Below, piece after piece: positions 1-31,976 of a DNA stretch of 32,122 nucleotides (positions are counted from its first letter, which is position 1; each line of letters opens with the position of its first letter). The position numbers and the translations under genes are program-made. The notes below the pieces were generated by a model. The model was not told where the DNA came from. It made no database searches and saw only the letters and a program-made list of their open reading frames with translations. This DNA comes from a virus (taxonomy: Duplodnaviria; Caudoviricetes), in IMG/VR virus record IMGVR_UViG_3300005326_000098, positions 1 to 32,122 of that record. One strand, 5' to 3'.

Positions 1-104
1 TGAAAACACGCTGCCGCTTGTTCCGCTTGCGCCTCTAACATTTCCCATAAACCGCTATATGTGCGTTTGGGAACGAAGAATGGTGAACTATTAACTGTAA
101 TCAT
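1..104 (-). CDS. Partial hypothetical protein running off the left edge (MITVNSSPFFVPKRTYSGLW...)
   Basis: ATG at 104 preceded by AAAGGAACGCC; frame open to the window edge (manual translation). Confidence 0.5.
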   Translation of the reverse strand, partial: MITVNSSPFFVPKRTYSGLWEMLEAQAEQAAACF

Positions 105-123
105 GGCGTTCCTTTTTCATTTT

Positions 124-644
124 CATTGTACGTTTTCCCCTTTCTTCTAATAGGTTTAACTACTCGATACTGTCAACAGGTTGACCGTTTGCAATGTCAA
201 TATCTCTTATTGCACCAAAATAGAATGATCCATCCCCTTCCAACCAAGCAAAGAAAAGGGAAAGGGAAAAGCCAAAATATGACTTTATCTTTTCTGTGAG
301 AATATCAGCCGCATTGTCGAACAAAGGCTCACAATACCAATCCCAAAATTCACAATCCAGCGCATTACCAAAAAGCGTATCATCTTCCCCATAGATGTAC
401 GCATGAGAGAAATTTTTAGGGAAAACGATACCAAAGTCACTACACACTTCCCCTGTCTGATATATTCCGGCTGCCCCACTGCCCAAAATGTCAATTACCA
501 TTTCTTCTTGCCAATCATTCGGATCCCGTGCGAACCAGTCCCCGTTCTCGATTGTGGATATGAGCTTTTCAATATCAAAGCAATCCACAATACGCTGCGT
601 GTTAATACTTACCCTTTTAGACATTGTACGTTTTCCCCTTTCTT
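124..644 (-). repeat. Exact 23-bp direct repeat (124-146 and 622-644) comprising RBS plus start codon, AAGAAAGGGGAAAACGTACAATG
   Basis: cattgtacgttttcccctttctt occurs at both positions. Confidence 0.9.
160..624 (-). CDS. Acidic, aromatic-rich hypothetical protein (early-gene type)
   Basis: 154 aa ORF with strong RBS; roughly 28 D/E versus 9 K/R by manual count. Confidence 0.75.
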   Translation of the reverse strand: MSKRVSINTQRIVDCFDIEKLISTIENGDWFARDPNDWQEEMVIDILGSGAAGIYQTGEVCSDFGIVFPKNFSHAYIYGEDDTLFGNALDCEFWDWYCEPLFDNAADILTEKIKSYFGFSLSLFFAWLEGDGSFYFGAIRDIDIANGQPVDSIE

Positions 645-732
645 GTGTTTTCCCCTTGTTCCAAGGCTTAGAACTTTGTAAGCATGTTTACAATGGATGT
701 ATAGTCCATTGTCTTCACATTGCAAGGGAATG

Positions 733-1341
733 TTACAAGCTATAACAGTTATGACCGTCTTCCGTGTAGTTCTCCCCATTGTTTTCCAAGTCTTCCTTGA
801 TAGCTTCTTCACTCATATAATATTCAGCTTCCTTTTCGAGCATAAACCGGGTTTCATCAGCCAGTCCAAGCAACGCATCTTTGACAGTATCACCTTGCAA
901 CAATGCCTTTTTCAGCAAATCCAGCAAGTCTTCGTCAAAGCAATAGCCCGTGAAAGGGCAAGGTTTAACCATTCCCGCCCTATAGTAACTACCATACTTT
1001 GACAATTTCCAGCGTTCCTTACCATACCAGGGTATACGCAAATATGACAACAGGTTATTTTCCAACCATGCGAAAGCACGTTTCCCTGTCAATTCCCCAG
1101 TTGCGTCTTCATCAAAGTCAATACGAATGTAGTTATTTTGGTTATATGCACCAATATTCCAGTCTTTCAGGGTTATACCATGGATTGCATTGATCAAGGC
1201 TTTAAGACTGTCCACGGTTTCTTCCAACCAGGGAATATCCCCATACTCTTCCCTTTTGCTGCGTTCCCGTTCGATGACTTTCTCCTGAATATCTTCTGTC
1301 AATTCGGAAAATTTGAAAGTGCTAATAGTAATGGTATTCAT
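733..1341 (-). CDS. Hypothetical early protein (start revised to ATG 1341, 202 aa); N-terminus resembles the 'F.ELS...KEKA' family of phage/plasmid leading-region proteins
   Basis: RBS AAGGGGTAACAAC-ATG; MNTITISTFKFSELTEDIQEKVIERER; acidic C-terminus. Confidence 0.7.
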   Translation of the reverse strand: MNTITISTFKFSELTEDIQEKVIERERSKREEYGDIPWLEETVDSLKALINAIHGITLKDWNIGAYNQNNYIRIDFDEDATGELTGKRAFAWLENNLLSYLRIPWYGKERWKLSKYGSYYRAGMVKPCPFTGYCFDEDLLDLLKKALLQGDTVKDALLGLADETRFMLEKEAEYYMSEEAIKEDLENNGENYTEDGHNCYSL

Positions 1342-1432
1342 GTTGTTACCCCTTGTACAATACTTTAAATGTTTGTATGTAGGTTTATACCCTTGTGGTA
1401 TGTACAAGGGTATTATCACCTTTCAAGGGATA

Positions 1433-1972
1433 TTACCTTATTACAGGAGCAAAACCCGCTTGTATCGCCGCATTTTTCAAGTCAACAATACACATGTTAT
1501 TACCGTCTTTTCTGCCAACAAAATTGTACATTTCTGCTCCTGCCTCATTCCAACGATTTGCAGTAATATCAACAGTTACCTTTTCTTTACTGCAAAGATA
1601 CGCAATTTCCTTTTTGATACTGTTTTCCAGTCTTCCCCATGCTGAAACAAGTATTGCGTCCCAGGATTCAATTTCAGGCAATCCTTCCACAGTCACCCAA
1701 CCACTGGACCTGCCAGCGGAATACACCTTGACAGAATATTTTGGGAAGTAGTATTCCACCGTATCCTGCACACAATCCCAGAATTGTGATGTTGAGCTGT
1801 CCCAGGCGTATTCCAGCGCCTTTTCCAGTGTCGTTTCATCACAATGCAATTCTTCAGCTGTGATGTTTCCACCGAAACGAGAATAGCATTTGACATTGAT
1901 TGCGGGATACTCTTTACCATAATATGACTGGGAATGAGTATCAATATCCGATTTGCGGAAATAGTGTTTCAT
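1433..1972 (-). CDS. Hypothetical early protein, 179 aa
   Basis: RBS AAAGGGGAAACATCACC-ATG; contains GRSSGW motif. Confidence 0.75.
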   Translation of the reverse strand: MKHYFRKSDIDTHSQSYYGKEYPAINVKCYSRFGGNITAEELHCDETTLEKALEYAWDSSTSQFWDCVQDTVEYYFPKYSVKVYSAGRSSGWVTVEGLPEIESWDAILVSAWGRLENSIKKEIAYLCSKEKVTVDITANRWNEAGAEMYNFVGRKDGNNMCIVDLKNAAIQAGFAPVIR

Positions 1973-2000
1973 GGTGATGTTTCCCCTTTCTTTCCTGGTT

Positions 2001-2240
2001 TTATCCTATGATTACAACATTATTCTTAGCTGCCCATATACGTGCTTTTTCAATAGCTTTTTCTTGGTTATTTGGGTTGTATGTACGGGAATACAATTCC
2101 ATAGGCGCACCGTCTTGATCCTGGAGGTTAGTACTCCGCAGCACAAGATAATGGTGGCTGGGAGTAAGTACGCCATTTTCCAGCCTACAGCCATTTTCAA
2201 GGCTTATACAGGCCTCGTGTTTTTGGATGTAGTATGCCAT
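2001..2240 (-). CDS. Hypothetical protein (start revised to ATG 2240, 79 aa)
   Basis: RBS GAAAGGGGAACAAC-ATG precedes MAYYIQKHEA. Confidence 0.65.
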   Translation of the reverse strand: MAYYIQKHEACISLENGCRLENGVLTPSHHYLVLRSTNLQDQDGAPMELYSRTYNPNNQEKAIEKARIWAAKNNVVIIG

Positions 2241-2859
2241 GTTGTTCCCCTTTCTGTTCCTGTTTCCATTACCGGTACTAGTAATAGTACTGTGTACCAT
2301 AGTATCATGATTGTTGTATGTGTTGTGTATAAGGTAATAAAGGGAGTATTGTGCACATTGTCAAGGGATTTTTGGGATATTTTATGGTAGGTACAAAAAT
2401 ATTTTGCACAGTTACCCACACAAGGGTATGAAACCCAGGCTCCTATACAGCGTTTTATATATCACCATTGTCATGATAATTGTGATGTATATACAATGTA
2501 TATACGTGAGAAATAGGGATAGGGGAGAGGTTACTTAGTCCAAATTTAAAGGCGATACCACGCCTGTTACCTCTGATCCGAAACAAGTTTACATAATGGT
2601 TATTATGCGCAGTGAAAATTCCTTCAATATATTAAACTTTTACCTGGGTATAATATGAATATAGTGATGTCTACCCCCCACTCCCCTATTATTATCATTT
2701 TGAGATGTAGGCAGATAGGGGTATGGTGACCCCCACTTATTACACACACAACCTACACACAATTTCTATCCATTTTCCCATAATACTATTACCAATAACA
2801 GTACTATTACCCCTTATATCCTACAATATACTCTACTACTTACCTTCTTTTCTCTATTT

Positions 2860-2919
2860 CTGTTACTATTACTGTTACTATTACTAGTACTAGTATTAGG
2901 GCTGGTATTGGTATTAGTT
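2860..2919. repeat. Degenerate hexamer tandem repeat (ctgtta ctatta ctgtta ctatta ctagta ctagta ...)
   Basis: Six clear units at 2860-2895, decaying to about 2919. Confidence 0.75.
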
Positions 2920-3022
2920 GTATTTCCAAAAATAATATTAAAAATTTTTCTGTAAACCACTGCCCAAACAGTATTTACCCCAAAAAATGTGTGGTACTGT
3001 TGCTGTTGCTGGTAAAAAGTGG

Positions 3023-3052
3023 TTGACAGGCAGCCCCCTACCCCCCTATTTT
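3023..3052 (+). promoter_or_regulatory. Sigma70-type promoter candidate TTGACA-N18-TATTTT
   Basis: Perfect -35 at 3023-3028, -10-like at 3047-3052, in a non-coding region. Confidence 0.5.
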
Positions 3053-3241
3053 ACCACCACAACGCACCGCGGAGTACAATGCACAGTCTTGGTATGGCTC
3101 ACAGTGTGTATAGGGGGAATTGGTCATGTAACGGCGTATGGTGAGAGTATAGAGATGGATTTGGGTCACCCAGGCCCTCCCCCACCTCTTCTTTGAAACC
3201 CCCTGTGACAAGGGGCCACCCCTTTCTTGGAGGGTGGGGGT

Positions 3242-3285
3242 AATACCCAGTTGAATGCACCCTGTTCGGCTGGGTATTTTTATTT
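3242..3285 (+). terminator. Intrinsic terminator, plus strand
   Basis: AATACCCAGTTGAA (3242-3255) pairs with TTCGGCTGGGTATT (3265-3278) using two G:U pairs that exist only in the plus-strand RNA; followed by a T-rich tract. Confidence 0.7.
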
Positions 3286-3409
3286 GTTAAAGGAAAATAG
3301 GCGTAAAAATCCCCCCCACCTTCCCGGTCCACCCCTACTCATTGGTAGTATGGTGTCCTGTTGTTATGGTGGGGGGTTCTTCCACCTCCTTCTTCCAGAA
3401 AGGAGATGC

Positions 3410-16241: not shown

Positions 16242-16712
16242 TTAGGTTTCCCGTTCAATGTTGGTGGGAGCATCGTAGGACGTATACTGTTCTTCGTCCC
16301 TTTCCACGTCGAGTATGTACGCACCACGTACATTGTCATAATCCGACAACAGGTCTACAACAACAGCAGGGAATGGAAACTCAATACTATCCCTGTCTTT
16401 GTAGGTTTCGCGTAGTATTCCGGTTTGCAGTATGCCCTGTGCTTGCAACCCCATCCGTATGTCGAGGTCCTCCCCGTGTTGCAGGAGGAAGTAGCAGAGT
16501 TCACACTGTGCATCCTTCATCACCTGTACAGCAGTGGTGGGAAGGGAGAAGCGGCGGGAACGGGTGAGGAGTTTGTAGGCGTACAGGATAGAACGGTTTT
16601 TGTTGGCCCCACTCACCCAGTAATCTGTGGAGTTGGGTCGGTCATCGAAATAGGTGTTTGCGTCGGCCAGTGACACCCAACTGTTTGTTCCTGTGGTTAT
16701 TGTGCTTGGCAT
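16242..16712 (-). CDS. Head-tail adaptor (connector) protein
   Basis: NSWVSLADANTYF and KDAQCEL motifs; synteny. Confidence 0.75.
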   Translation of the reverse strand: MPSTITTGTNSWVSLADANTYFDDRPNSTDYWVSGANKNRSILYAYKLLTRSRRFSLPTTAVQVMKDAQCELCYFLLQHGEDLDIRMGLQAQGILQTGILRETYKDRDSIEFPFPAVVVDLLSDYDNVRGAYILDVERDEEQYTSYDAPTNIERET

Positions 16713-16978
16713 TATCTCTTCCCCGGTGCAGTATTTTTACGCCGATCTTCCCCCGCATACCCTGCATCCTCCACCTTATTCAACCTACGCTCTATCTCAG
16801 CGTGTACGGTTTCACAGAAGTGGGTGTCAACCTTGTTGACAAAAATAGATTTTAAACTATCGTCGTGGTAACTTATCTTCGTACCAAACACGCCCTTAAT
16901 ATAAGCTGCGTTGGCTATAAATGCCACGACAGTTACTATAGTAGGCAGCCACGACTCAACACTATTTTCCATACCCAC
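16712..16978 (-). CDS. Small membrane protein, holin/antiholin-like
   Basis: N-terminal hydrophobic helix followed by a charged helical tail. Confidence 0.5.
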   Translation of the reverse strand: MGMENSVESWLPTIVTVVAFIANAAYIKGVFGTKISYHDDSLKSIFVNKVDTHFCETVHAEIERRLNKVEDAGYAGEDRRKNTAPGKR

Positions 16979-16999
16979 TCCAATTTTGCAGGGTAACAG

Positions 17000-17305
17000 T
17001 TACTTACCCTCGTCAGCTATCTTTTGATTGTTGGCTCCCCAACCATATCCAAATACAGCAATCCCAGACTGCACCACAACCCAGCCAACAGTTGCAACGG
17101 TGATGGGAATGCCAGCGACGGTTGCAACGATAAGTGTTCCCCCTGTTGCCACCATTGCACCACCCACAATACCTATAGCAGTACCAATCACCCTCTTTAC
17201 CTTGTACCACGGCCTGTTGTCTTTTGCTACAGGGGATGGGGTTATTATGGAGGCAATTAGACTGGTGGGTGCCTCCTGTGTGGTTGTGGTTGTGGTTTTA
17301 GTCAT
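17000..17305 (-). CDS. Holin-like membrane protein (start revised to ATG 17305)
   Basis: RPWYKVKR followed by two hydrophobic segments. Confidence 0.5.
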   Translation of the reverse strand: MTKTTTTTTQEAPTSLIASIITPSPVAKDNRPWYKVKRVIGTAIGIVGGAMVATGGTLIVATVAGIPITVATVGWVVVQSGIAVFGYGWGANNQKIADEGK

Positions 17306-17567
17306 CGCTGTCAAGACCTGCATGCACACCGTCGAAATAGAACGCGGCCTTCTCCTGCATCAACCCCTCAATGCCTTCCCAGGAGTTGCCGAGTTTATCC
17401 TTGGCATTGGCTGTGAGCCACTTACCGTGCTTGACACCCTCAGCACGAAGAGCGTCGTTGCTGATTTGCCCGCCCAACACCATGACTACCACATCAAGGA
17501 CTACCTTAGACAGACTCCCCTTGATACCGGCGAGAATCCCGTCAAAAATCCCTTTTTCTTCTGGCAT
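17298..17567 (-). CDS. Hypothetical protein, 89 aa
   Basis: RBS AAGGAGGTTTGCA-ATG. Confidence 0.65.
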   Translation of the reverse strand: MPEEKGIFDGILAGIKGSLSKVVLDVVVMVLGGQISNDALRAEGVKHGKWLTANAKDKLGNSWEGIEGLMQEKAAFYFDGVHAGLDSDD

Positions 17568-17597
17568 TGCAAACCTCCTTGGTTTTGTAATAGATGA

Positions 17598-17699
17598 TCA
17601 ATACCCTACAGGACATGCAACAAAACAAAACAACAAACCAATAATAATCCCCACAGCGAATAGGAGAATCAGGGAAACGGTTATCATGACTGAGTGCAT
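17598..17699 (-). CDS. 33-aa single-TM peptide MHSVMITVSLILLFAVGIIIGLLFCFVACPVGY (below the ORF track cutoff)
   Basis: RBS AGGAGATAAC-ATG; fills the gap between neighbouring genes. Confidence 0.55.
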   Translation of the reverse strand: MHSVMITVSLILLFAVGIIIGLLFCFVACPVGY

Positions 17700-17707
17700 G
17701 TTATCTC

Positions 17708-18022
17708 CTATTCATACCTGTGTTTATAAAACCAAAAACTCGCTGTGCAACACCGCAGATACCACCAGTTCACGGCTCGAATATTCGTATCGGCAGGCGG
17801 ACACAACACCCGGTCGAACAGCCAATATCCGGGCCGGTACAGGATAGGGATTGTCGGTATGGGCTTAAACGCCTTGAGGTAGCGTTCCCCGGACTCGATA
17901 ACCCATGACTGATAGGTTTGTTCGGGAGTATCGGAGTGCACGCATGACACCCGCCAGAAGCACAGCACGGCCACAGCGGTGAGGATCGCCAGCCCGATGA
18001 GTATGTCTTTGAGTGTCAGCAT
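17708..18022 (-). CDS. Membrane-anchored or exported hypothetical protein
   Basis: N-terminal hydrophobic helix ILIGLAILTAVAVLCFW. Confidence 0.6.
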   Translation of the reverse strand: MLTLKDILIGLAILTAVAVLCFWRVSCVHSDTPEQTYQSWVIESGERYLKAFKPIPTIPILYRPGYWLFDRVLCPPADTNIRAVNWWYLRCCTASFWFYKHRYE

Positions 18023-18136: not shown

Positions 18137-18967
18137 TCAGTAGAGTATCCGAGCCGAAGCGTTGTCTATAACACCAGAGAATCCGGAAGCAAAAAGTGAT
18201 ATAATGGAATTACCTGCGTTGTTTACTATTATATCCTCACTGTATGTTCCCGCACTTGACCTGACCGTCCCCGTAGTACCACCACAATACACCCGCAAAG
18301 TGCCGCCTGTCATGCTCACGATGGTATATGTGATTCGTATCTTTGTTCCGGCTGCTTTAAAGGTGTTGAGATACAACGAATAGCCAGAAGCACTTACAGC
18401 AGTAGCGACTCCGCTGCCAATCGTCCACCCTCCACTCGCTACCCATCCCGTGCCAGTGGCAAAGCCGGGGTCAGTTACAAGTTCCGCCCCCATCTTCGGG
18501 CTTTTCCCCTCCTGGTAACCCGGCCTCGTCTGGCTGTCGTTGCCAGATTTGATGGGGCGGATGCTCAGTGTCAACAACCTGACCGGCCCAGTTTCGGCTC
18601 CTCCTGCGGCTCCGCGAATACGCAATCCAGTGTCTGTTGCCGTGAAGTCAAAAGTTCTGGAAAATGTCCCCGATAGGCCCGTAGCATAGGTTGTAGAAGC
18701 TATAAAGTCTTGTATCCTAAGTGTTGGAGTTGATATACCTGAAATGCTCAGTCGGTATTGTTTTCCAATGACAAGAAAACTGCTCTTTGAAATGTGCCCT
18801 GCCAATACATCTACGGTAAATGAATCGGAATCTACTATGGTGGCATTTACCGCACTCCATCCCGAAGTGATATTTATCGGCTGAGGTATTACTTCACTCC
18901 ACAACCCTCCCCACGCACTCGCAGGGAGCAGGCCAAGCAGGAGGCATATCAGTATGAGTCGCTTCAT
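18137..18967 (-). CDS. Signal-peptide protein with two CBM-like beta-sandwich modules
   Basis: MKRLILICLLLGLLPASAWG signal; GAELVTDPGFATGTGW module start, as seen in phage fibre carbohydrate-binding repeats. Confidence 0.7.
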   Translation of the reverse strand: MKRLILICLLLGLLPASAWGGLWSEVIPQPINITSGWSAVNATIVDSDSFTVDVLAGHISKSSFLVIGKQYRLSISGISTPTLRIQDFIASTTYATGLSGTFSRTFDFTATDTGLRIRGAAGGAETGPVRLLTLSIRPIKSGNDSQTRPGYQEGKSPKMGAELVTDPGFATGTGWVASGGWTIGSGVATAVSASGYSLYLNTFKAAGTKIRITYTIVSMTGGTLRVYCGGTTGTVRSSAGTYSEDIIVNNAGNSIISLFASGFSGVIDNASARILY

Positions 18968-19206
18968 TTCGCCTCCGCTTCCGTGACCAGAGTCGCTACG
19001 GTTTTGCCCGTGAACCCTTCGAGGGCTTTCTTCAGGTCTGCGTTCTCCCGTTCCAGCGCAGCCAGACGTGCGGATACCGAGGATTGGACTGCCGGTTGCG
19101 AGGGATTGCTCTTTCCCTCTGGTATGGGCGCAGGCTCAACAACAGGTTCTTCCACCACGCCCTCTTGCAGTTTTTCGTCAGGCTCTTTATATCCTTCCAT
19201 TATCAT
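18964..19206 (-). CDS. Small acidic coiled-coil protein, possible fibre chaperone
   Basis: ARLAALERENADLKKALE; RBS AGGAGA; no signal peptide. Confidence 0.6.
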   Translation of the reverse strand: MIMEGYKEPDEKLQEGVVEEPVVEPAPIPEGKSNPSQPAVQSSVSARLAALERENADLKKALEGFTGKTVATLVTEAEAK

Positions 19207-19212
19207 TCTCCT

Positions 19213-20847
19213 TTATCTGAACCTAATGGGCGAGAAGCACCATCTTCCACCGCTCACGGATTTCATATAGACGGTCACTTGATAATACTTATCCCGCAAC
19301 ATCCACGGACTCTCTATCACAGCCGCCCAATGTTCCCAAGTGCTTGCGGTAGTTACAGTTACCCATCCCGAAGAGTAGATTGTCCCCGTCTGGTTCTTCA
19401 CCACAATCATGATTGCGCCACTGTCTGCATCCGCCTCCGTGCCGGTGAAGTACAGGTCGGTCATGATGGAGTCGGGAGTGAGGGTAACCGGCAGAAACGT
19501 CAGCCCATAAATGCCCGTCTTGAGGCTCGGCGAATCCTCGGAGTCCCATGAGAAGTACTGCGTCCACATGGTTCTGGTCATGGTCGAGTCGATGCCCACG
19601 CCCGCGCTTGTGGAGTCGGTAACAATGAGGGTGAACCGCTCGATGGGGGTATCCCATAGGGTAGCGCCGCCTTGAAATGCATCCGCTCTTATGGTATCGC
19701 TCGGAGCCGCCGCAATCACATTAGCCGATGGTGCGCTCAATGCCGTAGTCGCACTCAGCTTCAGGGAGTCCAGGAACGCGAGGAAACCCGTGAATTTCCC
19801 AAGCGAGTCAATATAGGCCTTGGTGCGGCCAGTGGAGTCTCGCCAGTTCTGAAGCGAGTCGCCATTGGCGGCGACGCCTTTAATGGTAAGCCCCGCAGTA
19901 GCGTCGAAATTTCCGCCCATGCTTACCTTGCCCGTGCTCCCGATGACCATACGGGTCCAGTCCAGACCACCCGTTCCGCTTGCCTGGTTCGTGCCAAAGA
20001 TAATCTTACCCGCCTGATTGTTGAGCGTGGCGTTTTCCTTCACCCCGGCGATATGCCCGAACCCGATATATGGGGTCGCGCCCGCGTTATATTTGCCACC
20101 AAAGATGATACCAGCGCCGACGCCAGCACTATAACTGTCGGTGGAATACAACGACATGACTTGTTGCTGCTGGGAAGGGTTTGAGCCTGAGGTTGTCCCG
20201 CGCAACTGGAACGGAAAATTCGCTGAGGGAGTCATGCCAAATCCCCAATGTCCGGACGAGTCCATGAGCGCCAGCCATGTGTTGTTGCGCCGCAGCCCAA
20301 ACACGTAGCGAGTGGTGTCGGTATTGGCAGTGTTGACTTCAAGCATTGAATTGCTTGCCGCCTGCGAACCCACGGTCATGCGGTCCGACCAGTATGATTT
20401 GTAGAGATACCGGAAAGGATTAACCAGGTCACCACCACTGACACCCTGTACTTGTGTTGAATCCGCTGGATTGCGCTTGAGAGCATCCACCACTGAGTCT
20501 GGTGCCGCAGATTTGGTGAGGTAGGTTATGGCTGCCCTAGCTTCCGCTGCCAAAATGCTGTCATTCCACGCACGGATAAACGAATCGGGGAAAGCCGATG
20601 CCCTCATAATGCTCAGTGTCCTGGCATACCACGCATTGGCAGAATCGGGGAAAGCTGTTTTCAACAAGGCAAGAAACAGGCTGTCGGATATGTCTTGTTG
20701 CAGTCGTGCTTCCACCGCCGCTGTAGTGTCTGTTAGGGCTTTGCGGGATGCACTGTTAGACTGGAAGTCCAGTTGCTTCAGCGTCTGTGTTTGGGCAAAG
20801 CTGATGATGAGCAACCCTGCTGTGAGTACAATTATAAACTTTTTCAT
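19213..20847 (-). CDS. Signal-peptide, D-S/T-rich fibre-like protein (544 aa)
   Basis: MKKFIIVLTAGLLIISFA|Q signal; fibre-type repeats (GKIIFGTN...RMVIGSTGKVSMG); 22 D-S/T dipeptides. Confidence 0.75.
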   Translation of the reverse strand: MKKFIIVLTAGLLIISFAQTQTLKQLDFQSNSASRKALTDTTAAVEARLQQDISDSLFLALLKTAFPDSANAWYARTLSIMRASAFPDSFIRAWNDSILAAEARAAITYLTKSAAPDSVVDALKRNPADSTQVQGVSGGDLVNPFRYLYKSYWSDRMTVGSQAASNSMLEVNTANTDTTRYVFGLRRNNTWLALMDSSGHWGFGMTPSANFPFQLRGTTSGSNPSQQQQVMSLYSTDSYSAGVGAGIIFGGKYNAGATPYIGFGHIAGVKENATLNNQAGKIIFGTNQASGTGGLDWTRMVIGSTGKVSMGGNFDATAGLTIKGVAANGDSLQNWRDSTGRTKAYIDSLGKFTGFLAFLDSLKLSATTALSAPSANVIAAAPSDTIRADAFQGGATLWDTPIERFTLIVTDSTSAGVGIDSTMTRTMWTQYFSWDSEDSPSLKTGIYGLTFLPVTLTPDSIMTDLYFTGTEADADSGAIMIVVKNQTGTIYSSGWVTVTTASTWEHWAAVIESPWMLRDKYYQVTVYMKSVSGGRWCFSPIRFR

Positions 20848-20853
20848 TGTATA

Positions 20854-21270
20854 TTACCTCACCCGTGCTGTAATAGCAGAGACAGAAAGTGTACCCACCA
20901 CCCTCACCACCCTGAAGCGAGTGTAGGGTACTGTGCGTAACCCCACAAACCTCCACCCCCCTGTCGTGTTGGTGGTGATGGTGCGATCCCCATCGTCATC
21001 CAAATTCATCCACCTCACCCCATCCTCACTCCCTTCCAACCTCACCACCACACTATCCGTCCCCGCAATCCCCGACGTGGTGTAAGCCCACGTTATCTCA
21101 CTACTATCCCGGCTATAGACGTAGTTGGTGGTGTCGGCGGATGTGATGGCTGTAAAGGAGATGGCAGTGGCGTTGAGTGCGTAACTATCCCCATTGACTT
21201 GTGTGTAGGACTGTGCTATCCCCACCCACACACACAGTGCCAGTACCAGTGCTAACAGTAACTTTTTCAT
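20854..21270 (-). CDS. Signal-peptide beta-sandwich protein, head decoration/spike-base-like
   Basis: MKKLLLALVLALCVWVGIA|Q signal; VRLEGSEDGVRW motif; 4 D-S/T. Confidence 0.7.
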   Translation of the reverse strand: MKKLLLALVLALCVWVGIAQSYTQVNGDSYALNATAISFTAITSADTTNYVYSRDSSEITWAYTTSGIAGTDSVVVRLEGSEDGVRWMNLDDDGDRTITTNTTGGWRFVGLRTVPYTRFRVVRVVGTLSVSAITARVR

Positions 21271-21280
21271 GGCAATACCC

Positions 21281-22255
21281 TTACACGAAATTGTGGTGAG
21301 TGATGGGTGTGAAGTATGAGTTCAACACCTGATTATACTCGTCGTAATAGCAACGGTGGCAGTGTTCCCCGTTAAAGTACTTTTGCTCCCCCCACACACT
21401 CTCTATATTGTCCAGTGTCCCTATTTGCATGTTGGTGGGGAGGGTGAGGTCCATGTCAGCATGAGCAGACGATGTACCACAACACGGGTATATTCCCCCA
21501 TCTGCCCCAATGATAGGCCGTAGGAGGGATATACGACAATCCTTACACCCCCTGACATACTGTTTGCGGGAAAGGTACACCATTACCCCTTTACTCTGTG
21601 GAAATGCCCCTTCTACTTCTTCCTTCACCCCTGCCATATCCACAGCTTTGTCCAGGTTCAACAGGTCATCCACCACCCGTACATGGGTGAAGTTGTGGGA
21701 GAGGGCGAAGTCCACATATGCTAAAAGGTTGGGGATGTTTGGTTTGTCTGTGAGGACGTAGGAAAATCCCCAATCCACCTTTGGTGCCCGTACTACTGCA
21801 TCATGCAGTATTTCAAAGAAGTGGGGGGTAAGGGGGCGGGTGTCAGCCACACTCACCCTACACCACAACACCCTGCGTAGGGCAAGGGTGGGGAGAATGT
21901 TGATGAGGGTGCCATTGGTTATCAGCCCCACCTCTATACCAAAATTGTGTATGGCAGTGATGAGTTTGGGAAGGTCAGGGTAGCAAAGTGGCTCCCCACC
22001 CCCTGACAGTGTTACGGCCTTGGTTCCCAGTTTGGAGAAGATGGGGAGAGTGGGGAGTATGGAGGACAGGGGGAGGGATATGTCCCTATTGGCATTGGCA
22101 CAAGAGCAAAACGGACAGGAGAGGTTGCAGTTGTAGGTGGGCATGAGGGTGACGTGTATGGGCTTAACCACGTCCCCCAACAACCCCTCCACAGCGTCCT
22201 TGTGGGTAACAAGTTTGAATGGGTATGTGTTTACGGCTGTGAATGTGTTTTGCAC
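21281..22255 (-). CDS. Radical SAM enzyme with SPASM/twitch-like domain
   Basis: CNLSCPFC, LSGGGEP, ITNG; C-terminal C...DGGIYPCC...CHRC. Confidence 0.9.
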   Translation of the reverse strand: MQNTFTAVNTYPFKLVTHKDAVEGLLGDVVKPIHVTLMPTYNCNLSCPFCSCANANRDISLPLSSILPTLPIFSKLGTKAVTLSGGGEPLCYPDLPKLITAIHNFGIEVGLITNGTLINILPTLALRRVLWCRVSVADTRPLTPHFFEILHDAVVRAPKVDWGFSYVLTDKPNIPNLLAYVDFALSHNFTHVRVVDDLLNLDKAVDMAGVKEEVEGAFPQSKGVMVYLSRKQYVRGCKDCRISLLRPIIGADGGIYPCCGTSSAHADMDLTLPTNMQIGTLDNIESVWGEQKYFNGEHCHRCYYDEYNQVLNSYFTPITHHNFV

Positions 22256-22258
22256 TGG

Positions 22259-22846
22259 TTACTCCCCAACTTTTTTAAATGCCAGCATTGCCGTTGCAGT
22301 CCAATCCACATCATATGATCTTTCCCAGTAAGATGGGAAGATGATGGTGAAGAAGTTTCTGTCTGCAAACTCTTTTTCTTCCATTACGCATTGGTGGTAC
22401 ATCCCGTCTATATTCTGCCGTTCTTTGTTGTAGCGATCCATCCCATCTTGCCCCAACGGTCCCCACACCACAACATACTTCCGTGCTATACGTTCTGCCT
22501 GTTCCAGTACTTTCCATGAGTTGGCTTTGACAAAATGTTCCAACACATCAAACAGTATGACAGCATCGAAAGATTTGTCAGAGTAGAGGGTGGGAAGGTC
22601 GGTGATGGCGTCCCCCACATCCCATTTCACCCCCGGCCATGTTTCCCTTGCACACGCCAACCTCTCCAACGACATATCCATCCCTGTTCGTACTGGGATG
22701 TTGTGAAACTGCCCTATTATACCCCCCTCCCCACACCCTACCTCCAACAGTGACCGTACCCCCCAGGATTGGAGTTGGTAGTGAGTAAGTTGGGTTGGGT
22801 TGACAAACACCCTTCCAGTGGGGCTATAGATTTTTGTAGAAGTCAA
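22259..22846 (-). CDS. Class I SAM-dependent methyltransferase (true start possibly GTG 22810)
   Basis: LLEVGCGEG motif I; SFDAVILFDVLEHF. Confidence 0.88.
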   Translation of the reverse strand: MTSTKIYSPTGRVFVNPTQLTHYQLQSWGVRSLLEVGCGEGGIIGQFHNIPVRTGMDMSLERLACARETWPGVKWDVGDAITDLPTLYSDKSFDAVILFDVLEHFVKANSWKVLEQAERIARKYVVVWGPLGQDGMDRYNKERQNIDGMYHQCVMEEKEFADRNFFTIIFPSYWERSYDVDWTATAMLAFKKVGE

Positions 22847-23783
22847 TGTACTTCCTCACGATGGTAGAGGGGGTGTAGTGGGTGTGTGACCAGCGTATAG
22901 CATTCTCCCCATCCTGTTGCAAGGCGTTGGGGTGTTTTACGTAGAACATTGCTATTTCAGCCATTTCATCTATGTTGGTGACGTCTCTTACAGGCACGTC
23001 TTCCCCAAACATTTTCTTATAGGCTGTAAGGGTGCGTGGGTCATAGCGGGAAAGCAACACATGTCCCAGTGCTAAAGATTCCCACCCCCACATCCCTGTA
23101 AACCCTTGGGTGAGGTTGTCAATGGATAGGTTGTAGGATCGACGCAGTTCCAATGCTTCGTAGCGGAGCATGTTACTGAAGCATTGGTGGGTGATGGGTT
23201 GGGTGTGGGAGAGATAGTCAAGGCTTTGGACTATAACCTTGTTATTGCGCCGTCCGTCGGCTGTGTCGTTGTGTATGGCCACCCTCACCCCATCGTTGTA
23301 GGGGACAGTGTGGGGACGGATGGTGGAGAGGTCCAGGACGTTGGGTAGCCAAGTTGCATAGGGTATGGGTGCAATGGGATCACATTTCAGTATGGAGGCG
23401 TCAGCCAACTTACACTCCCTCACCCAGTAGGCAGGGTTGAGTTGGTGAAACCCCCCGTGGAAGTGGAAGACAAACTTCTTCTTCCCCACCAACTTCTCAA
23501 ACGGGTGCCCTTCCCCATATTCGTTGTAGGGGTGGAAGAGGAAGGCGTTGGTGTTGGGTTTGTGCGTCCATATCCAATTGTTGAAGTGGAGGATGTCAAA
23601 CCCTTCTGCTGCCTTGGTTATGTCGTCTATCTCACAGTAGCAGTAGTCCGCGTAGGGGGCAGCAGGGGTGTGGCGTTTGACAATGGAACACGCCTCCCAG
23701 CCAGGGATGGAGTTGAGTGCATTGCGTAAATGCCACGACACCCCAGCACAGTCAAACTCAAGGTTGATTAACAGTACTTTCAC
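22824..23783 (-). CDS. GT-B-fold glycosyltransferase-like protein
   Basis: MKVLLI, DILHFN, FHFHG, LPNVLD and GMWGWESLALG motifs. Confidence 0.65.
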   Translation of the reverse strand: MKVLLINLEFDCAGVSWHLRNALNSIPGWEACSIVKRHTPAAPYADYCYCEIDDITKAAEGFDILHFNNWIWTHKPNTNAFLFHPYNEYGEGHPFEKLVGKKKFVFHFHGGFHQLNPAYWVRECKLADASILKCDPIAPIPYATWLPNVLDLSTIRPHTVPYNDGVRVAIHNDTADGRRNNKVIVQSLDYLSHTQPITHQCFSNMLRYEALELRRSYNLSIDNLTQGFTGMWGWESLALGHVLLSRYDPRTLTAYKKMFGEDVPVRDVTNIDEMAEIAMFYVKHPNALQQDGENAIRWSHTHYTPSTIVRKYIDFYKNL

Positions 23784-24490
23784 TCCAACCCCCGCCTGTG
23801 TTTAGACTTGTCCAGTACCAGTTTGGTGGCGTTCATAGGTTTGGCTTTGGTGTTGGTGATGTTACCAGCCCACCGTCTTTGCCACCCCAGACAGCGATTC
23901 AAGTGTTCAAAGGTAAAACCGGCCTCCACAGCCCGTAGAACAAAGTCGTAGTCTTCACAAGGCTCTTCTTGGAAGGGGCCTACTGTTTCCCGTAGTTTGC
24001 GTTTCCACATCCACACACACCCAAGAAAGTAACCGTTGTTAAACAGGGTGGGAAGTGACCATGTTTGGTCAACCTCTTCCCACAAGTTTCTCCTGAACAA
24101 CTCCCCCTCCCCTGTGTGGTCCATCACCCCTATTTCATTATTGCAATACACGTGATCACATTTTGGGTTGAGGGTGAGGTATTGTACCATCTCTTCAAAC
24201 GCGGTTGGGTAGAGGATGTTGTCCGACGCCCACCATGTTTCCAGTGCCCCATTGGACAACCCAAAGCCCGTATTCAACGCCTTGCCGGTCCCACCGTTGA
24301 CTAGTTGCACCACAACCCTAATTCGCCTATCCTTGAGTATGTAGCTTTGCAGGATGGAGGGGGTGGAGTCGGTACTGGCATCATCAACTATTATCAGTTC
24401 CCAGTTGGGGTAGGTTTGGGAAAGGATAGAGTCGATAGCATCCCGTACAAACAGTTCATGGTTGAATGTGGGCATGACAACCGTCAGCAT
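23780..24490 (-). CDS. Family 2 glycosyltransferase
   Basis: VVMPTFN, SILSQTYPNWELIIVDDASTD, ALNTG, SDN, EDYDF. Confidence 0.93.
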   Translation of the reverse strand: MLTVVMPTFNHELFVRDAIDSILSQTYPNWELIIVDDASTDSTPSILQSYILKDRRIRVVVQLVNGGTGKALNTGFGLSNGALETWWASDNILYPTAFEEMVQYLTLNPKCDHVYCNNEIGVMDHTGEGELFRRNLWEEVDQTWSLPTLFNNGYFLGCVWMWKRKLRETVGPFQEEPCEDYDFVLRAVEAGFTFEHLNRCLGWQRRWAGNITNTKAKPMNATKLVLDKSKHRRGLE

Positions 24491-24494
24491 GGCA

Positions 24495-25865
24495 CTAATC
24501 CCTAAATTGACGTGACGCTTGGAACTGTTCGATTACAGGGTGTTCAACATCCCCCATCAGGTCGTATATCGTGCAATACTCCTTGGGGATGTTGACGACG
24601 TTTATCTTCTTTTTGTAAGACTCCAACATGTATTGCAGCGTGAGTTGTTCTACACGGTGTGGGGTGGCAGCAGTGGCCGCTACCCAGTCCTGCAACATGG
24701 TTATGGTGCGTTTGTTGTAAGACAGGTACATGACTGCACTGTCAAGTTCTTTCTGATTGCGGCGGTTGTTGGAGTGGGTGGACCAGTCGATGTAGTGGAC
24801 ACCCACATCCCCTTTGAAGTTCACGAACAAATGGGGGTAGGAGTTGACAATGGAGTCAGCGTCCAACCACAGTATGTCACGTTTGTGTTCCAGCAGTTTG
24901 TCCAACATGAACTGGGGTTTGTGCTGCACCATATGCAACCAATCCCCTGTTTTTTCTACGTGTGTGAGTTCGACTTCAAACCCAAACCGCTGTATGCTCG
25001 CCTTCATCCTATGTGCAATGGTGGAGTATTTGTCTGTGTAAAAGTTAACGACGATGGGGTATTTGTGTTTCTTGACTTTTTCTGCTGTGATAGTCGATTT
25101 ACGAAACACATTGAGGGAGGAGGCAGGGTTGAGGTTTACAATGTCAGTGTGAAGTTCAGCCACTGCGTCCGCCGCTTCCCTCCACTCCTCTTTAAACAGG
25201 GTATACACACCCCCCTGCTGCCCGTCTTGGTCACCATAGCCATTATGCCACCACACCTTCTTTTTGTCCTGTGTAGGGGTCATGTCAAAGCCAAGGATGT
25301 AGATGGGGTTGGCCCCCAGTGCAAAGGCAAGGTTGATGGCTGCGTAACCTGTATTGCTGCCCCACCTCAACCCATCCGCCAGGTTGGTGTGAAAGGGTTT
25401 GAGGGTGGGGTTGTTCTTGAGGAAGAAGCACTCATCGGACGGTACCAAATGTGAGTTTGTGGGGAAGTAGGCCCAGCACTTCACCCCATCGTATGCGTTA
25501 TACTTTGTAAGTGTGTTTTCACCCAGTTTACCCGTAGTCACCCACCCCCAAAACCGCTCATCCATTGCAAGCAGGATAGTAGGGTCACACACCTCAAACG
25601 CCCGGTTAATACCAATGACAAGTTCCCCCTTGAGTATGGACATGTCAAAGTCTTTGAGGGATGGTCCACCCCCCACCACCCAACACCTACGCCCACCCCA
25701 ACTGTTGGAAGGGAGGATGGAGTGGAGGTAGCGAAGTTGGGTTTCATACTCGTGCAGTACGTCGTCTTTTGTGGCAGGAGATGGGGTAGAGACAGGAATA
25801 GTAACTCCCTGCATTTTTCTCCGTCTTACATCTGCCATTGTCAGTACACCCATCTCCATCTCCAT
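24495..25865 (-). CDS. Two-domain glycosyltransferase: Maf/DUF115 (sialyltransferase-like) N-domain plus DxD nucleotide-diphospho-sugar transferase C-domain
   Basis: VVGGGPSL...IGIN, SNTGYAAINLA..LGA..IYILGFD; C-domain KPQFM...ILWLDADS. Confidence 0.8.
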   Translation of the reverse strand: MEMEMGVLTMADVRRRKMQGVTIPVSTPSPATKDDVLHEYETQLRYLHSILPSNSWGGRRCWVVGGGPSLKDFDMSILKGELVIGINRAFEVCDPTILLAMDERFWGWVTTGKLGENTLTKYNAYDGVKCWAYFPTNSHLVPSDECFFLKNNPTLKPFHTNLADGLRWGSNTGYAAINLAFALGANPIYILGFDMTPTQDKKKVWWHNGYGDQDGQQGGVYTLFKEEWREAADAVAELHTDIVNLNPASSLNVFRKSTITAEKVKKHKYPIVVNFYTDKYSTIAHRMKASIQRFGFEVELTHVEKTGDWLHMVQHKPQFMLDKLLEHKRDILWLDADSIVNSYPHLFVNFKGDVGVHYIDWSTHSNNRRNQKELDSAVMYLSYNKRTITMLQDWVAATAATPHRVEQLTLQYMLESYKKKINVVNIPKEYCTIYDLMGDVEHPVIEQFQASRQFRD

Positions 25866-25957: not shown

Positions 25958-26959
25958 TTACGAGGTCTTGCACCTACTGATCTGTTTCGTCTCAGCAATA
26001 GCCCCACCATACCGCATCCACCCCACAACCGTGTCAGTGTATGACAGAATATCAGTCATACCCATCAGGGTCAGGTTCATCCTATACCCACCCTTGATCT
26101 TACCCTTGGGGATCATGACATAGTAGTCAGTAGTGGAGGTAAGCATGAGAGTGAATACCGGCTGGATGTTGTAAGCAATGCGATTGGGGGAACCTGCCAT
26201 AGCCTGTTGGTAGTAGGCAAGGGCACGGGTGATTCGACCCCTCAGTGCTTCCGGTGCAAGGAGAATGAAGGTTGACTGCGGGTTCACCCCCATCCCCAAA
26301 TCTTTCAGCCGTGTGATGATGGCAAGACACGCTGCATTGATCGTGTTGGCGTCCCTAATTGGTATGTAGCTGTCAGATGTGGCCGGAATAGACCCATCCA
26401 CCGCCGTCCACGACACGTCGTAGGTGGCAGCCACAGCCTCAATGAGGTCGTAGAAGTCCTGGGCGCGGGACTGGTAGGCGACGTTGCGGAACTGGATGGC
26501 ATTGTCTTCCAGCGTCCAATACTGCTTGTCGTCCAACAGCAGCTTGTTCCAACTCAACCCACCCCCATACATGTCGAAACTAACCGACACCTTTGACCCC
26601 GACATTTTGTACACTTTCGCCTTCCCACCAGGTTTAACCAGGGAGAAGGTGAGGCCTGAGCTTACGTCCAAAATGTCAAAGCCGGAAAGATTGGTGCCCG
26701 TGAAGTCACGTATGTCGAAGATGAGTTCATACCCCATGTCGTAATACGGGGTTTGGTTGAAGCGGTCCAGAACAGGCAAGATTTCGGCGGGAAAGTCACC
26801 TTTATACCCGAACGCTTGCAGTCTGGCACGAAACGCCTGTACGTCTTTGTCCATATCAGGCGCATACATAAACGCCTGCAACGCCCCCCACATTTTCAAA
26901 ATGTCGGTAGGGTTGGAGGGGTTGATGGCAGCCCAGTTGTTAATAATTCTTCCCTTCAT
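25958..26959 (-). CDS. Major capsid protein
   Basis: 333 aa; follows scaffold and cement genes; ILLAPEAL and VGWMRYGG HK97-fold-type motifs. Confidence 0.8.
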   Translation of the reverse strand: MKGRIINNWAAINPSNPTDILKMWGALQAFMYAPDMDKDVQAFRARLQAFGYKGDFPAEILPVLDRFNQTPYYDMGYELIFDIRDFTGTNLSGFDILDVSSGLTFSLVKPGGKAKVYKMSGSKVSVSFDMYGGGLSWNKLLLDDKQYWTLEDNAIQFRNVAYQSRAQDFYDLIEAVAATYDVSWTAVDGSIPATSDSYIPIRDANTINAACLAIITRLKDLGMGVNPQSTFILLAPEALRGRITRALAYYQQAMAGSPNRIAYNIQPVFTLMLTSTTDYYVMIPKGKIKGGYRMNLTLMGMTDILSYTDTVVGWMRYGGAIAETKQISRCKTS

Positions 26960-30144: not shown

Positions 30145-30408
30145 TCACTCATCCAACTTCATATCCACCAGTAGTGTGTTGGCTATATCACGAATACTTT
30201 GTATATGTGCAATCATTGTGGGAGAAATTTTTTGATTAATTTCCCTCCTTCTCCCCTCTAAATGTGAGTAGGTTTCCAGTGTGGTAAACTTCTCACCACA
30301 CCTATTGCAGAGATAACGGCGTCGGCGTTGGGGTTGGTCTTTTACCAGTCGGGTGTCCAACACCTTTAACTCTGACTCCCCCCTTGCTCCACATTCAGGA
30401 CATACCAT
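30145..30408 (-). CDS. NrdR-type zinc-ribbon protein lacking the ATP-cone (start revised to ATG 30408, 87 aa)
   Basis: MVCPECG...KVLDTR...RRRRYLCNRCGEKFTTLE; RBS GGGGGAG. Confidence 0.8.
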   Translation of the reverse strand: MVCPECGARGESELKVLDTRLVKDQPQRRRRYLCNRCGEKFTTLETYSHLEGRRREINQKISPTMIAHIQSIRDIANTLLVDMKLDE

Positions 30409-30437
30409 AACTCCCCCCACTGTTACTGTTGTTGTTG

Positions 30438-31976
30438 TTATTCTGGTGTAACATCCACATTGTCGTCTGTCATAAACGCTCCACCCCCTGTCTCCCTGAT
30501 AAACTGGCACACAAACAGTCGGGTGTCGTCCATTGTGTGATCTGACTCTTTTACTATCTTGCTTTCAAACTCATTTATTTTCTTCCGTCTGTACTGTGTA
30601 TACTCCCTTCTATTGTCAAGACAGGAGTAGTGGACCCCGATCTTAGGTGACCCCAGTACCGGATGTAAAGCGTTCTTTACCGCCTCCACTCCTGTATCCA
30701 CATCCCGGTCTTCATGGGGGTGGAAGGCGATGTTGCGATTTTCAGCATAGAACGTATCCTCCCACTCCGCTATAAGGTCCGCCCGTGCAGGGTCGGCGGT
30801 GTACTGGGTTATGTTCTTCCACCACGACTTCTGTTTGCAAATGGAGAGGAGGATGTGGTTGGTGGCAGGACGCCCTACTGGGGACAAAAACACCTCTGCC
30901 ACCCTCACCCATCGTGCTATGTCTTGAAAGTATTGCCACACCCCCACGGAAAATGGGTTGACCCCGCCCCAGTCAATACTCAGTGTTACAGGTAAAGCCG
31001 CATTGAACTTAGGCATCCCCTTAACATGTCTCTCTTCATCCCACTCCTCTTCATACACCAAATCACCAAACCCCACCTTTATGCAAAACCACTCCCGCAT
31101 GAGTACAGACATGGATAGGGTTTGGAGTTTTTGGATAAGGTCTTTGACAGGGTAATAGCCGTCAGCCTGTTTCATGTGGGGGCCTGGACACCACGGGGTA
31201 AGGGGGCAAGTCGAACAGGAATAGTCCTTACAGGCTGCGAGTATTTCCCAGCAGCAATATTTGTAAATGGCAGTATTCTGTTCTTTCGACTTTGCCAGGG
31301 CTCTATCCATCGTCCCACCAATATTGTGGTTGGTGGAAAACAGCCATAGGGAGGAGTTGTGGCCATACTTGGACACCGGTTGGGACAGGGCTGCCTGGTA
31401 CACATCGTCGTCTATTTCGTCTACTTCATCCAGTTTCAGGCATTGTGGATGGGGTCCACGTACAGACTTTTGACTGGCAGTGAGGATCGACACTTCCGAT
31501 CCGTTTTGCCATTCGGTTTTTGACAACATCTTCCTCAACCTTCCCCCACGGCTTTCCCTGCCTAGCAACTCTTCCTCCAACCCTGATATACGCCAAAAGT
31601 CATCCATAGCCTTGTAGGATAGCATAGACTGGTTTTCACTCCCCCCTAGCAGCCGTGTCTCATACTTTTTGTTGTAACAGGCTTTATACCACGTATCCAA
31701 CCCCCCGAAAAGATATGTCTTGGATCCGGCCCTATTAGTCCACACCACCCCACTCTCCACCCTGCCAGTTAGCATGTCAGCCACCACGTCAAACTGAGCA
31801 CAGTGGTCTTGCTGGGCGCAGTTGTGTTTGGTGCCAATCTTAGGCTCCTTCAGGGCAAGAAGAAACTCCTGCACGTCTAAGTTGGTGTGTAGGCCGTGGG
31901 TGATGTGATGACGTATTATTTCGCGCCGTATGAGGTCTTGGGCTGTGTCACTGAGATTCAACTGTAGTTTCCCCAT
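30438..31976 (-). CDS. terL: Terminase large subunit (start revised to ATG 31976)
   Basis: Walker A NRAGSKT, Walker B LKLDEVD, RNase H-like SIDWG and DHTMDDTR. Confidence 0.9.
   Translation of the reverse strand: MGKLQLNLSDTAQDLIRREIIRHHITHGLHTNLDVQEFLLALKEPKIGTKHNCAQQDHCAQFDVVADMLTGRVESGVVWTNRAGSKTYLFGGLDTWYKACYNKKYETRLLGGSENQSMLSYKAMDDFWRISGLEEELLGRESRGGRLRKMLSKTEWQNGSEVSILTASQKSVRGPHPQCLKLDEVDEIDDDVYQAALSQPVSKYGHNSSLWLFSTNHNIGGTMDRALAKSKEQNTAIYKYCCWEILAACKDYSCSTCPLTPWCPGPHMKQADGYYPVKDLIQKLQTLSMSVLMREWFCIKVGFGDLVYEEEWDEERHVKGMPKFNAALPVTLSIDWGGVNPFSVGVWQYFQDIARWVRVAEVFLSPVGRPATNHILLSICKQKSWWKNITQYTADPARADLIAEWEDTFYAENRNIAFHPHEDRDVDTGVEAVKNALHPVLGSPKIGVHYSCLDNRREYTQYRRKKINEFESKIVKESDHTMDDTRLFVCQFIRETGGGAFMTDDNVDVTPE

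Follow-up and report, generated by a model that had tools for sequence, protein, structure and literature searches.

According to the prevailing view, tailed phages produce and assemble their parts in the cytoplasm. In mycobacteriophages, glycosyltransferases (GTs) of clusters O and F1 modify the capsid and the tail tube (PMC11600133, PMC11256854), and a similar insert is described for cluster J (PMC3706429). In bacteria, flagellin is modified at Ser/Thr with nonulosonic acids or Kdo by Maf (PF01973, GT42-like), an enzyme which probably works in the cytoplasm (10.1101/2020.06.03.131540). With respect to head appendages, the RcGTA spike combines a base formed by a jelly-roll pentamer (Rcc01079) with the fibre Rcc01080 (PMC7296036), and for the YomS pentamer, binding to the capsid vertices has been proposed (PMC6834076). 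Here we analyze the window, i.e. the DNA of 32,122 bases that makes up the entire record IMGVR_UViG_3300005326_000098 of a virus of the Caudoviricetes, in which the gene for the major capsid protein (MCP) is followed by a cassette of five enzyme genes, headed by a two-domain GT termed GTa, and by three genes for proteins of 138, 544 and 276 amino acids (aa) with predicted signal peptides (SP138, SP544 and SP276, together the trio). The explanation we favor, with a confidence that does not exceed an even chance, is that two independent modules share one variable slot: a cassette that glycosylates the capsid and exported appendages that were gained separately. The modules are regarded as independent because the cassette persists without signal-peptide genes and clusters of signal-peptide genes occur without GTa.

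The locus shares with mycobacteriophage virion glycosylation (Che8, F1; O) several soluble phage GTs in tandem, a methyltransferase and the capsid as proposed acceptor. It differs from these systems in the Maf/GT42-like domain of GTa, the radical S-adenosylmethionine (SAM) enzyme and the place directly behind the capsid gene; furthermore, GTa has no relative among annotated cultured phages, an actinobacterial host is not known here and glycosylation is deduced from genes. Like the Maf flagellin glycosyltransferases and the GT42 sialyltransferase CstII, GTa is a soluble enzyme with a GT42-like domain encoded beside a self-assembling structural protein, but instead of flagellin its neighbors are capsid or adaptor genes, a GT77/GT34-like domain is attached to the GT42-like one and the Pfam score of the latter lies below the cut-off. 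By analogy, the cassette may work like mycobacteriophage virion glycosylation and like Maf, and membership in either is not claimed. As in the RcGTA head spike, SPbeta YomS and PBSX XepA, a small jelly-roll gene stands beside a fibre-like gene, and YomS and XepA are its best folds in the PDB; in contrast to these proteins, a signal peptide is predicted for SP138. A run of genes with signal-peptide-like starts is also present in Cellulophaga phage phi18:3 (gp085-gp087, KC821620), which belongs to another phage group and whose proteins lack sequence similarity to the trio. Bdellovibrio MAT fibres likewise consist of a signal peptide followed by a phage-like trimeric fibre with a variable tip, but are chromosomal bacterial surface adhesins and not products of phage head-operon genes (PMC10769870).

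Linkage of the enzyme cassette to capsid genes

MCP searches yielded 100 loci, to which the final search contributed the best 80 of 189. The MCP gene was called in 96 of the 100, giving 71 groups at 90% identity, 60 of them with at least 1.5 kb downstream. In all 60 non-redundant relatives a GTa homologue lies within three genes after the MCP gene, and in 55 it is the first gene, a result which is biased in part, alignment A6 having been seeded with capsids from GTa loci, and which to this extent counts against our explanation; the unseeded MCP searches gave the same pattern. When the search was started from a GTa alignment (best 80 of 324 stretches; 63 non-redundant loci), GTa was located directly after MCP in 30 loci, within three genes in 10, after the adaptor in 13 and elsewhere in seven, three loci being too short, which amounts to 53 of 63 after MCP or adaptor. 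Pfam assignment of the capsids upstream of GTa, with 37 of 49 unassigned upstream genes, revealed Gp13-like proteins in five loci, SU10 in three and HK97-type in two. GTa thus also follows three unrelated capsid families, four capsid families overall.

The gene content of the cassette varies widely among relatives. Two of them, L006 (37-56% identity) and L038 (39-49%), carry all five window enzymes as orthologues and then proceed directly to the head-tail adaptor, without signal-peptide genes in the slot; the L006 genome, rated 100% complete, has just two short signal-bearing genes, both outside the slot. Among the loci that reach the neck genes, 34 of 37 have no signal-peptide gene. In L034, L035 and L036 the same capsid was observed behind different portal and protease genes (lambda/ClpP-like by eye), with GTa following in L034 and L035, which suggests that capsid and GTa move as one unit. 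A glycosylation site at a C-terminal Ser/Thr of the capsid was considered as well and rejected: Ser or Thr is found in the last three residues in 48 of 60 capsids, but the GT-less MACPNOA1 capsid ends in Ser too, so that the feature does not discriminate.

Within the cassette (21281-25865) the initial annotation of a two-domain GT, a GT2, a methyltransferase and a radical SAM enzyme could be corroborated, and the GT-B call turned out to be weak (Table 1); orthologues of the latter protein share 53% in L006 and 44% in L038. GTa consists of a basic N-terminal arm, a Maf/GT42-like domain (~55-260) and a GT77/GT34-like domain (~270-455). The N-domain matches phrog_4603 (E 2e-20) and the C-domain PF03407 above the cut-off; the score against PF01973 (MAF_flag10) is 25 bits at a cut-off of 34.6 (E 1.8e-5), and weak profile matches were obtained to CstII (E 0.053) and a xylosyltransferase (E 0.7). 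A tblastn search against 50,697 phage records, carried out with GTa only, returned one match, an uncultured record. The radical SAM enzyme displays CxxxCxxC at C43-C50 and additional C-terminal cysteines. According to hydropathy none of the five enzymes has a membrane segment, and they are therefore taken as soluble. Among 489 slot genes of relatives, none has at least four transmembrane (TM) segments, which leaves no flippase- or oligosaccharyltransferase-like membrane gene there, and no multi-TM gene of the kind that partners Gtr-type serotype conversion was found in the window slot or in the same 489 genes.

The N-terminal arm of GTa (25700-25865 in the window, and in homologues) is basic and of low complexity, and in many homologues a short (I/L)(T/S)(M/L/T)xD(L/V)xxR-like motif occurs in it one to three times; a strict regular expression for this repeat matched 13 of 63. 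Possibly, the arm docks to the capsid. In the cassettes of L005, L010, L013, L016 and L030 we observed GDP-mannose-dehydratase-like, transketolase-like, pyruvyl-transferase and B12 radical SAM genes; since relatives carry such sugar-synthesis and tailoring genes, they appear to make and tailor their own sugars.

Taken together, it is quite likely that the cassette glycosylates the capsid in the cytoplasm by Ser/Thr O-glycosylation with methyl and radical-SAM tailoring. In such a mechanism the Maf/GT42-like domain of GTa would put a CMP-activated acidic sugar on capsid Ser/Thr, as Maf does on flagellin, the other transferases would extend the glycan, and the methyltransferase and the radical SAM enzyme would tailor it. 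Fast turnover of the cassette content may then result in a variable glycan shield. The data thereby favor GTs that modify only the cytoplasmic capsid protein, an outcome which the initial annotation had set against its own proposal of a phage-edited glycan on exported proteins.

The signal-bearing trio and its counterparts

Signal peptides were called by a heuristic, and not by SignalP, from a basic start, a hydrophobic core and small residues at -1/-3. It flagged exactly three genes in the window (SP138, SP544 and SP276) and none of 678 core genes of the 100 related loci. All three proteins start with MK(K/R), followed by a hydrophobic core and a small-residue cleavage site, and a purine-rich Shine-Dalgarno (SD)-like sequence precedes each start. 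No nearby in-frame ATG is present behind the three signals, hydropathy revealed no membrane anchor after them, and neither the central fibre J nor the side fibre of this phage has a signal peptide by the same heuristic. Close orthologues of the trio keep the signal and distant homologues are without it. Judged from these predicted signals, export and cleavage of the three proteins are very likely. In relatives, terminase-large-subunit-like genes with signal-peptide-like N-termini were observed (L164:5370-6677 and L175:4152-5477; weaker, L068:1537 and L080:1039). These genes have an in-frame Met close to the end of the hydrophobic core, and their N-termini may tether the protein to the membrane, reflect two alternative starts or result from a wrongly called start; the two that the heuristic flagged (L164, L175) encode terminases of another type.

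SP138 comprises a predicted signal (~1-19/21) and a single jelly-roll like YomS/XepA-C (AF2 model, pLDDT 68). The model superimposes on YomS with Z 10.0 and a root-mean-square deviation of 2.1 over 93 aligned residues, XepA being tied as top fold match; many small uncharacterized phage jelly-roll proteins are among its fold neighbors, and Rcc01079 is absent from the matches listed. Nine non-self homologues were found, six with a signal and three without, one of the three having been seeded into the query. In three orthologues the signal region shares 29-38% identity, versus 68-70% in the mature part, and retains its signal character. In L013 and L016 the corresponding slot holds homologues without a signal, the direct comparison with L016 being weak. 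The label of a spike base, given by the initial annotation, is supported for the modelled SP138 only at the level of the fold. For SP544, with a predicted signal (~1-18), a fibre-like body and a conserved C-terminal domain, a single homologue was found (P0006). Its Atlas neighbors are viral fibre-type clusters under the confidence bars, and these weak leads together with a resemblance by eye hint at the proposed fibre. SP276 combines a predicted signal (~1-18/20) with two beta-sandwich repeats resembling carbohydrate-binding modules (CBMs). The repeat has 2833 homologous proteins; among the best 150 of these, five bear a signal, including the sole full-length one (P0017, 40%), and in 28 scanned homologues the partner domains included LamG, tail-tip and tail domains. 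The fold matches of SP276 were discounted, since its single-sequence model (pLDDT 45) is too poor, the profile search against the PDB gave only E values above 0.2, and one weak PHROG match led to a family of unknown function; the CBM label, drawn from homologues and weak fold matches, is weakly indicated. None of the three proteins exceeded the threshold in Pfam/NCBIfam, viral-contig searches with SP138 and SP544 gave no relatives, and the one metagenome scan returned only the contig of the window itself. The trio, announced as three proteins in a row, is interrupted by a gene for an acidic 80-aa protein without signal, whose stop overlaps the SP276 start and which has no BLAST homologue among 2636 genes of the retrieved loci.

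In order to assess the claimed richness in Asp followed by Ser or Thr (D-S/T), 36 window proteins were compared with 2000 shuffles each, including the strict motif D(S/T)(A/I/L/V/M/T) of Bacteroidota O-glycosylation (PMC5420450). An excess was detected for one of the 36, SP544, with 22 versus 6.9 expected D-S/T and 15 versus 2.9 expected strict motifs (p<=0.0005), and its homologue P0006 keeps both the signal and a surplus (14 versus 5.6). Unlike such Bacteroidota substrates, SP138 (4 versus 2.0 expected, p 0.10) and SP276 (4 versus 2.3, p 0.16; no strict motif) show no excess, the pooled strict motifs amounting to 2 versus 2.1. Hence the claim stands for SP544 and fails for the other two. O-glycosylation by the host appears fairly likely for SP544 only; a phage-edited glycan on exported proteins is unsupported.

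Clusters of two to four signal-peptide genes follow the cassette in the slot of five of the 60 relatives (L124=L039, L129, L142, L157 and L158). Their bodies are fibre-, YadA-, LamG- or neck-like, mostly by eye and for the YadA repeat by Pfam, and show no BLAST similarity to the trio. The MCP tree comprised 64 rows, the window and 63 of the 71 groups (eight, including L182, were excluded for truncation or little downstream DNA); on it the six cluster-bearing rows correspond to six changes, at least five of them forced, which is no better than shuffles. The clusters are thus scattered over the capsid tree, and their presence is repeated and independent. A search with one L039 protein gave seven loci (L039, L116-L119, L120 and L121). 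L116-L119, two of them near-identical, have signal-peptide clusters and no GTa match in the retrieved locus, L120 has GT-like genes just upstream of its cluster, and L121 encodes a signal-less homologue of the L039 268-aa family. By eye, the two to five signal-peptide genes of L116-L119 lie between terminase-like and portal-like genes; the phages concerned have another capsid type. In phi18:3, gp085-gp087 have signal-like starts and carry the GenBank note 'structural, MS/MS'; eight other proteins of this phage annotated by mass spectrometry (MS) were checked and none has a signal. Further signal-peptide genes were observed outside these clusters: a 707-aa fibre-like protein right after a tail-tube-like gene in L034 (10832-12955; contig binned as Hydrogenedentota), whose C-terminal domain matches a signal-peptide protein of L129, and, in the capsid relative L164 (2761-3531), a beta-rich 256-aa protein whose gene lies upstream of that for the terminase.

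Export and a virion-like nature of the three proteins, as initially suggested, are thus supported. Via the predicted Sec signals the trio would leave the cytoplasm, SP544 alone being O-glycosylated by the host; SP138 would then serve as vertex base, SP544 and SP276 as glycan-binding fibre and adhesin, and at lysis, after failure of the inner membrane, the appendages would be joined to the particles. For attachment of the trio to the virion the balance tips slightly to the positive side. We infer an accessory role of the trio, given that a central fibre and a side fibre, both signal-less, are encoded by the phage in addition.

Layout of the window

The siphophage structural operon lies on the minus strand in the order terminase, portal, scaffold/protease-like gene, cement and MCP, followed by the studied region and, 3' of it, by adaptor, neck, tail tube, tape measure and lambda-like tip genes, after which the central fibre J, a 711-aa side fibre and an M15 endolysin are encoded. 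The predicted gene order after MCP (GTa, GT2, GT-B-like, methyltransferase, radical SAM, then the 138-, 544- and 276-aa proteins) and the tight packing were borne out, with intergenic gaps of -23 to +10 nucleotides from GTa through the 276-aa gene. Promoter and terminator scans remained at chance level. The four small genes between slot and adaptor have no family match of the Pfam/PHROG type. Furthermore, an NrdR-like zinc-ribbon gene was observed between terminase and portal (30145-30510), and positions 1-3300, after the endolysin, form an AT-richer block (37-42% GC versus ~52%) of small uncharacterized, early-gene-like genes.

Table 1 Features of the studied region and its borders, with the basis of each assignment.
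Feature	Position	Strand	Basis
MCP, 333 aa; proposed acceptor of the cassette glycan	25958..26959	-	PF25209 E 1.8e-6; family linkage to GTa
GTa, 456 aa; proposed initiating transferase	24495..25865	-	phrog_4603, PF03407, PF01973 below cut-off
GT2 glycosyltransferase, 236 aa, soluble	23780..24490	-	PF00535 E 1e-27
GT-B-like protein, 319 aa, weak assignment	22824..23783	-	PF13524 E 0.01, below cut-off
Class I SAM methyltransferase, 195 aa	22259..22846	-	PF08241 E 4e-11
Radical SAM enzyme, 324 aa	21281..22255	-	PF04055 E 4e-12; CxxxCxxC
SP138, candidate capsid-vertex spike base	20854..21270	-	signal-like start; jelly-roll model
SP544, fibre-like	19213..20847	-	signal-like start; D-S/T shuffle test
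80-aa acidic protein	18964..19206	-	sequence; short predicted coiled coil
SP276, two CBM-like beta-sandwich repeats	18137..18967	-	signal-like start; homologues
Four small genes between slot and adaptor	16712..18022	-	hydropathy: hydrophobic segments in 3/4, by eye holin-like
Head-tail adaptor, downstream border of the variable slot	16242..16712	-	phrog_477 E 6e-4

Alternative explanations and significance

Besides the seeding bias, several points weigh against two modules that glycosylate the capsid and supply exported appendages. MACPNOA1, a distant cultured relative of the capsid (29%), has no annotated GT behind its capsid gene, and for GTa the PF01973 score is below the cut-off and the CstII match weak. 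The jelly-roll of SP138 is generic, unrelated GOLD and protease domains reaching Z 9.2-9.7 and thus coming within 1 Z of YomS, and SP544 is without family, PDB or confident structural match. The heuristic also flags two terminase genes of relatives (L164, L175), so that a signal-like start need not mean export. No D-S/T excess was found in the other five signal-peptide clusters or in phi18:3. A Bacteroidota host is not established; the capsid relatives occur in bins labelled Hydrogenedentota, Verrucomicrobia and Methanobacteriaceae, all of them distant and possibly mis-binned. For this phage, the glycan, the cleavage and the virion location are predictions from the genes.

The cassette could coat the capsid while the exported trio remains in the periplasm or on the cell surface, where its members would act as receptor decoys or adhesins, block superinfection or assist lysis. 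Surface adhesins that are trimeric, phage-like fibres exported by means of a signal peptide are indeed known from bacteria (the Bdellovibrio MAT fibres, PMC10769870), and XepA, which ties for the best fold match of SP138, belongs to a lysis cassette and is reported to be missing from the mature phage (PMC6834076), a finding that counts against our explanation as well; holin-like genes come after the trio, and a 73-aa lipoprotein-like gene is found inside the L039 cluster (L039:13048-13269). We consider this alternative rather unlikely, since the trio genes lie inside the head operon and show promoter signals only at chance level, relatives have signal-less homologues in this slot, no membrane anchor stands behind the signals and the signal-bearing phi18:3 proteins are MS-annotated as structural. 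In the coupled system implied by the initial annotation, phage enzymes would edit a host lipid-linked O-glycan in the cytoplasm and the host would transfer the edited glycan to exported phage proteins. The co-transcription-like packing of cassette and trio, the D-S/T excess of SP544 and the GT-like genes immediately before the L120 cluster are in line with it, and the enzyme types fit, as Tannerella O-glycans end in nonulosonic acid transferred by dedicated enzymes with a methyltransferase gene nearby (PMC5420450). This coupling is nevertheless improbable and did not hold in the comparison: the cassette lacks signal-peptide genes in 34 of 37 complete slots, the two closest orthologous cassettes (L006, L038) have none, signal-peptide clusters exist without GTa (L116-L119), and flippase/oligosaccharyltransferase-like genes are missing from the 489 slot genes. 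The proposed survey for co-occurrence of head-module GTs with D-S/T-rich signal-peptide genes ended with clusters in five of 60 relatives, none of these clusters adjoining GTa having the excess.

There is little probability that the cassette acts on a non-protein target such as packaged DNA or a host surface polysaccharide, its place in the head operon merely setting the timing. GTs, methyltransferases and radical SAM enzymes accept a wide variety of substrates, the GT2 matches GtrB-like PHROGs, and in at least two GTa loci (L103, L111) GTa is part of a sugar-nucleotide cluster, and a head gene was not observed immediately upstream. However, Gtr-type membrane partners are absent from the slots, GTa tracks capsid or adaptor genes across the four capsid families, and DNA-modifying enzymes would be expected near replication genes. 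Even less probable, to a degree that we regard as very small, are signal-like N-termini that serve as membrane tethers, vestiges or upstream extensions, with assembly in the cytoplasm as usual. The signal-like starts of terminases in relatives speak for it; against it stand signals that diverged orthologues of each of the three proteins have retained, SD-like sequences before the signal-bearing starts, the lack of nearby in-frame ATGs behind them and a D-S/T excess that fits export-linked modification. A more far-reaching version of the favored explanation is a virion of two compartments, whose head is glycosylated in the cytoplasm by the Maf-like cassette and whose base, fibre and adhesin are secreted, cleaved, O-glycosylated by the host and snapped onto the head at lysis, with the same appendage folds having changed several times within the family between a cytoplasmic and an exported form; this version we regard as tentative and somewhat doubtful.

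Our literature searches (titles and abstract starts; most subscription journals outside the coverage) retrieved no exported structural proteins or appendages of tailed phages and no paper discussing the phi18:3 signals, and for capsid glycosylation one paper on an archaeal virus; a term search of PMC12014285 and PMC12494034 found no mention of signal peptides. What the window adds is a test of the coupling, which fails, and an extension to siphophage proteins in the head slot with paired signal-less homologues. These pairs (SP138 versus L013 and L016; the L039 268-aa family versus L121) make the idea of exported appendages testable, with phi18:3 as a cultured model. The presence of a GT42/Maf-like gene behind four capsid families suggests that capsid glycosylation is common far beyond mycobacteriophages. 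If the favored explanation is true, cleavable export signals on head-operon appendages in several unrelated lineages would imply that assembly is completed only once the inner membrane has failed; receptor-binding parts would thereby be kept from the cytoplasm and would gain periplasmic folding and host sugars.

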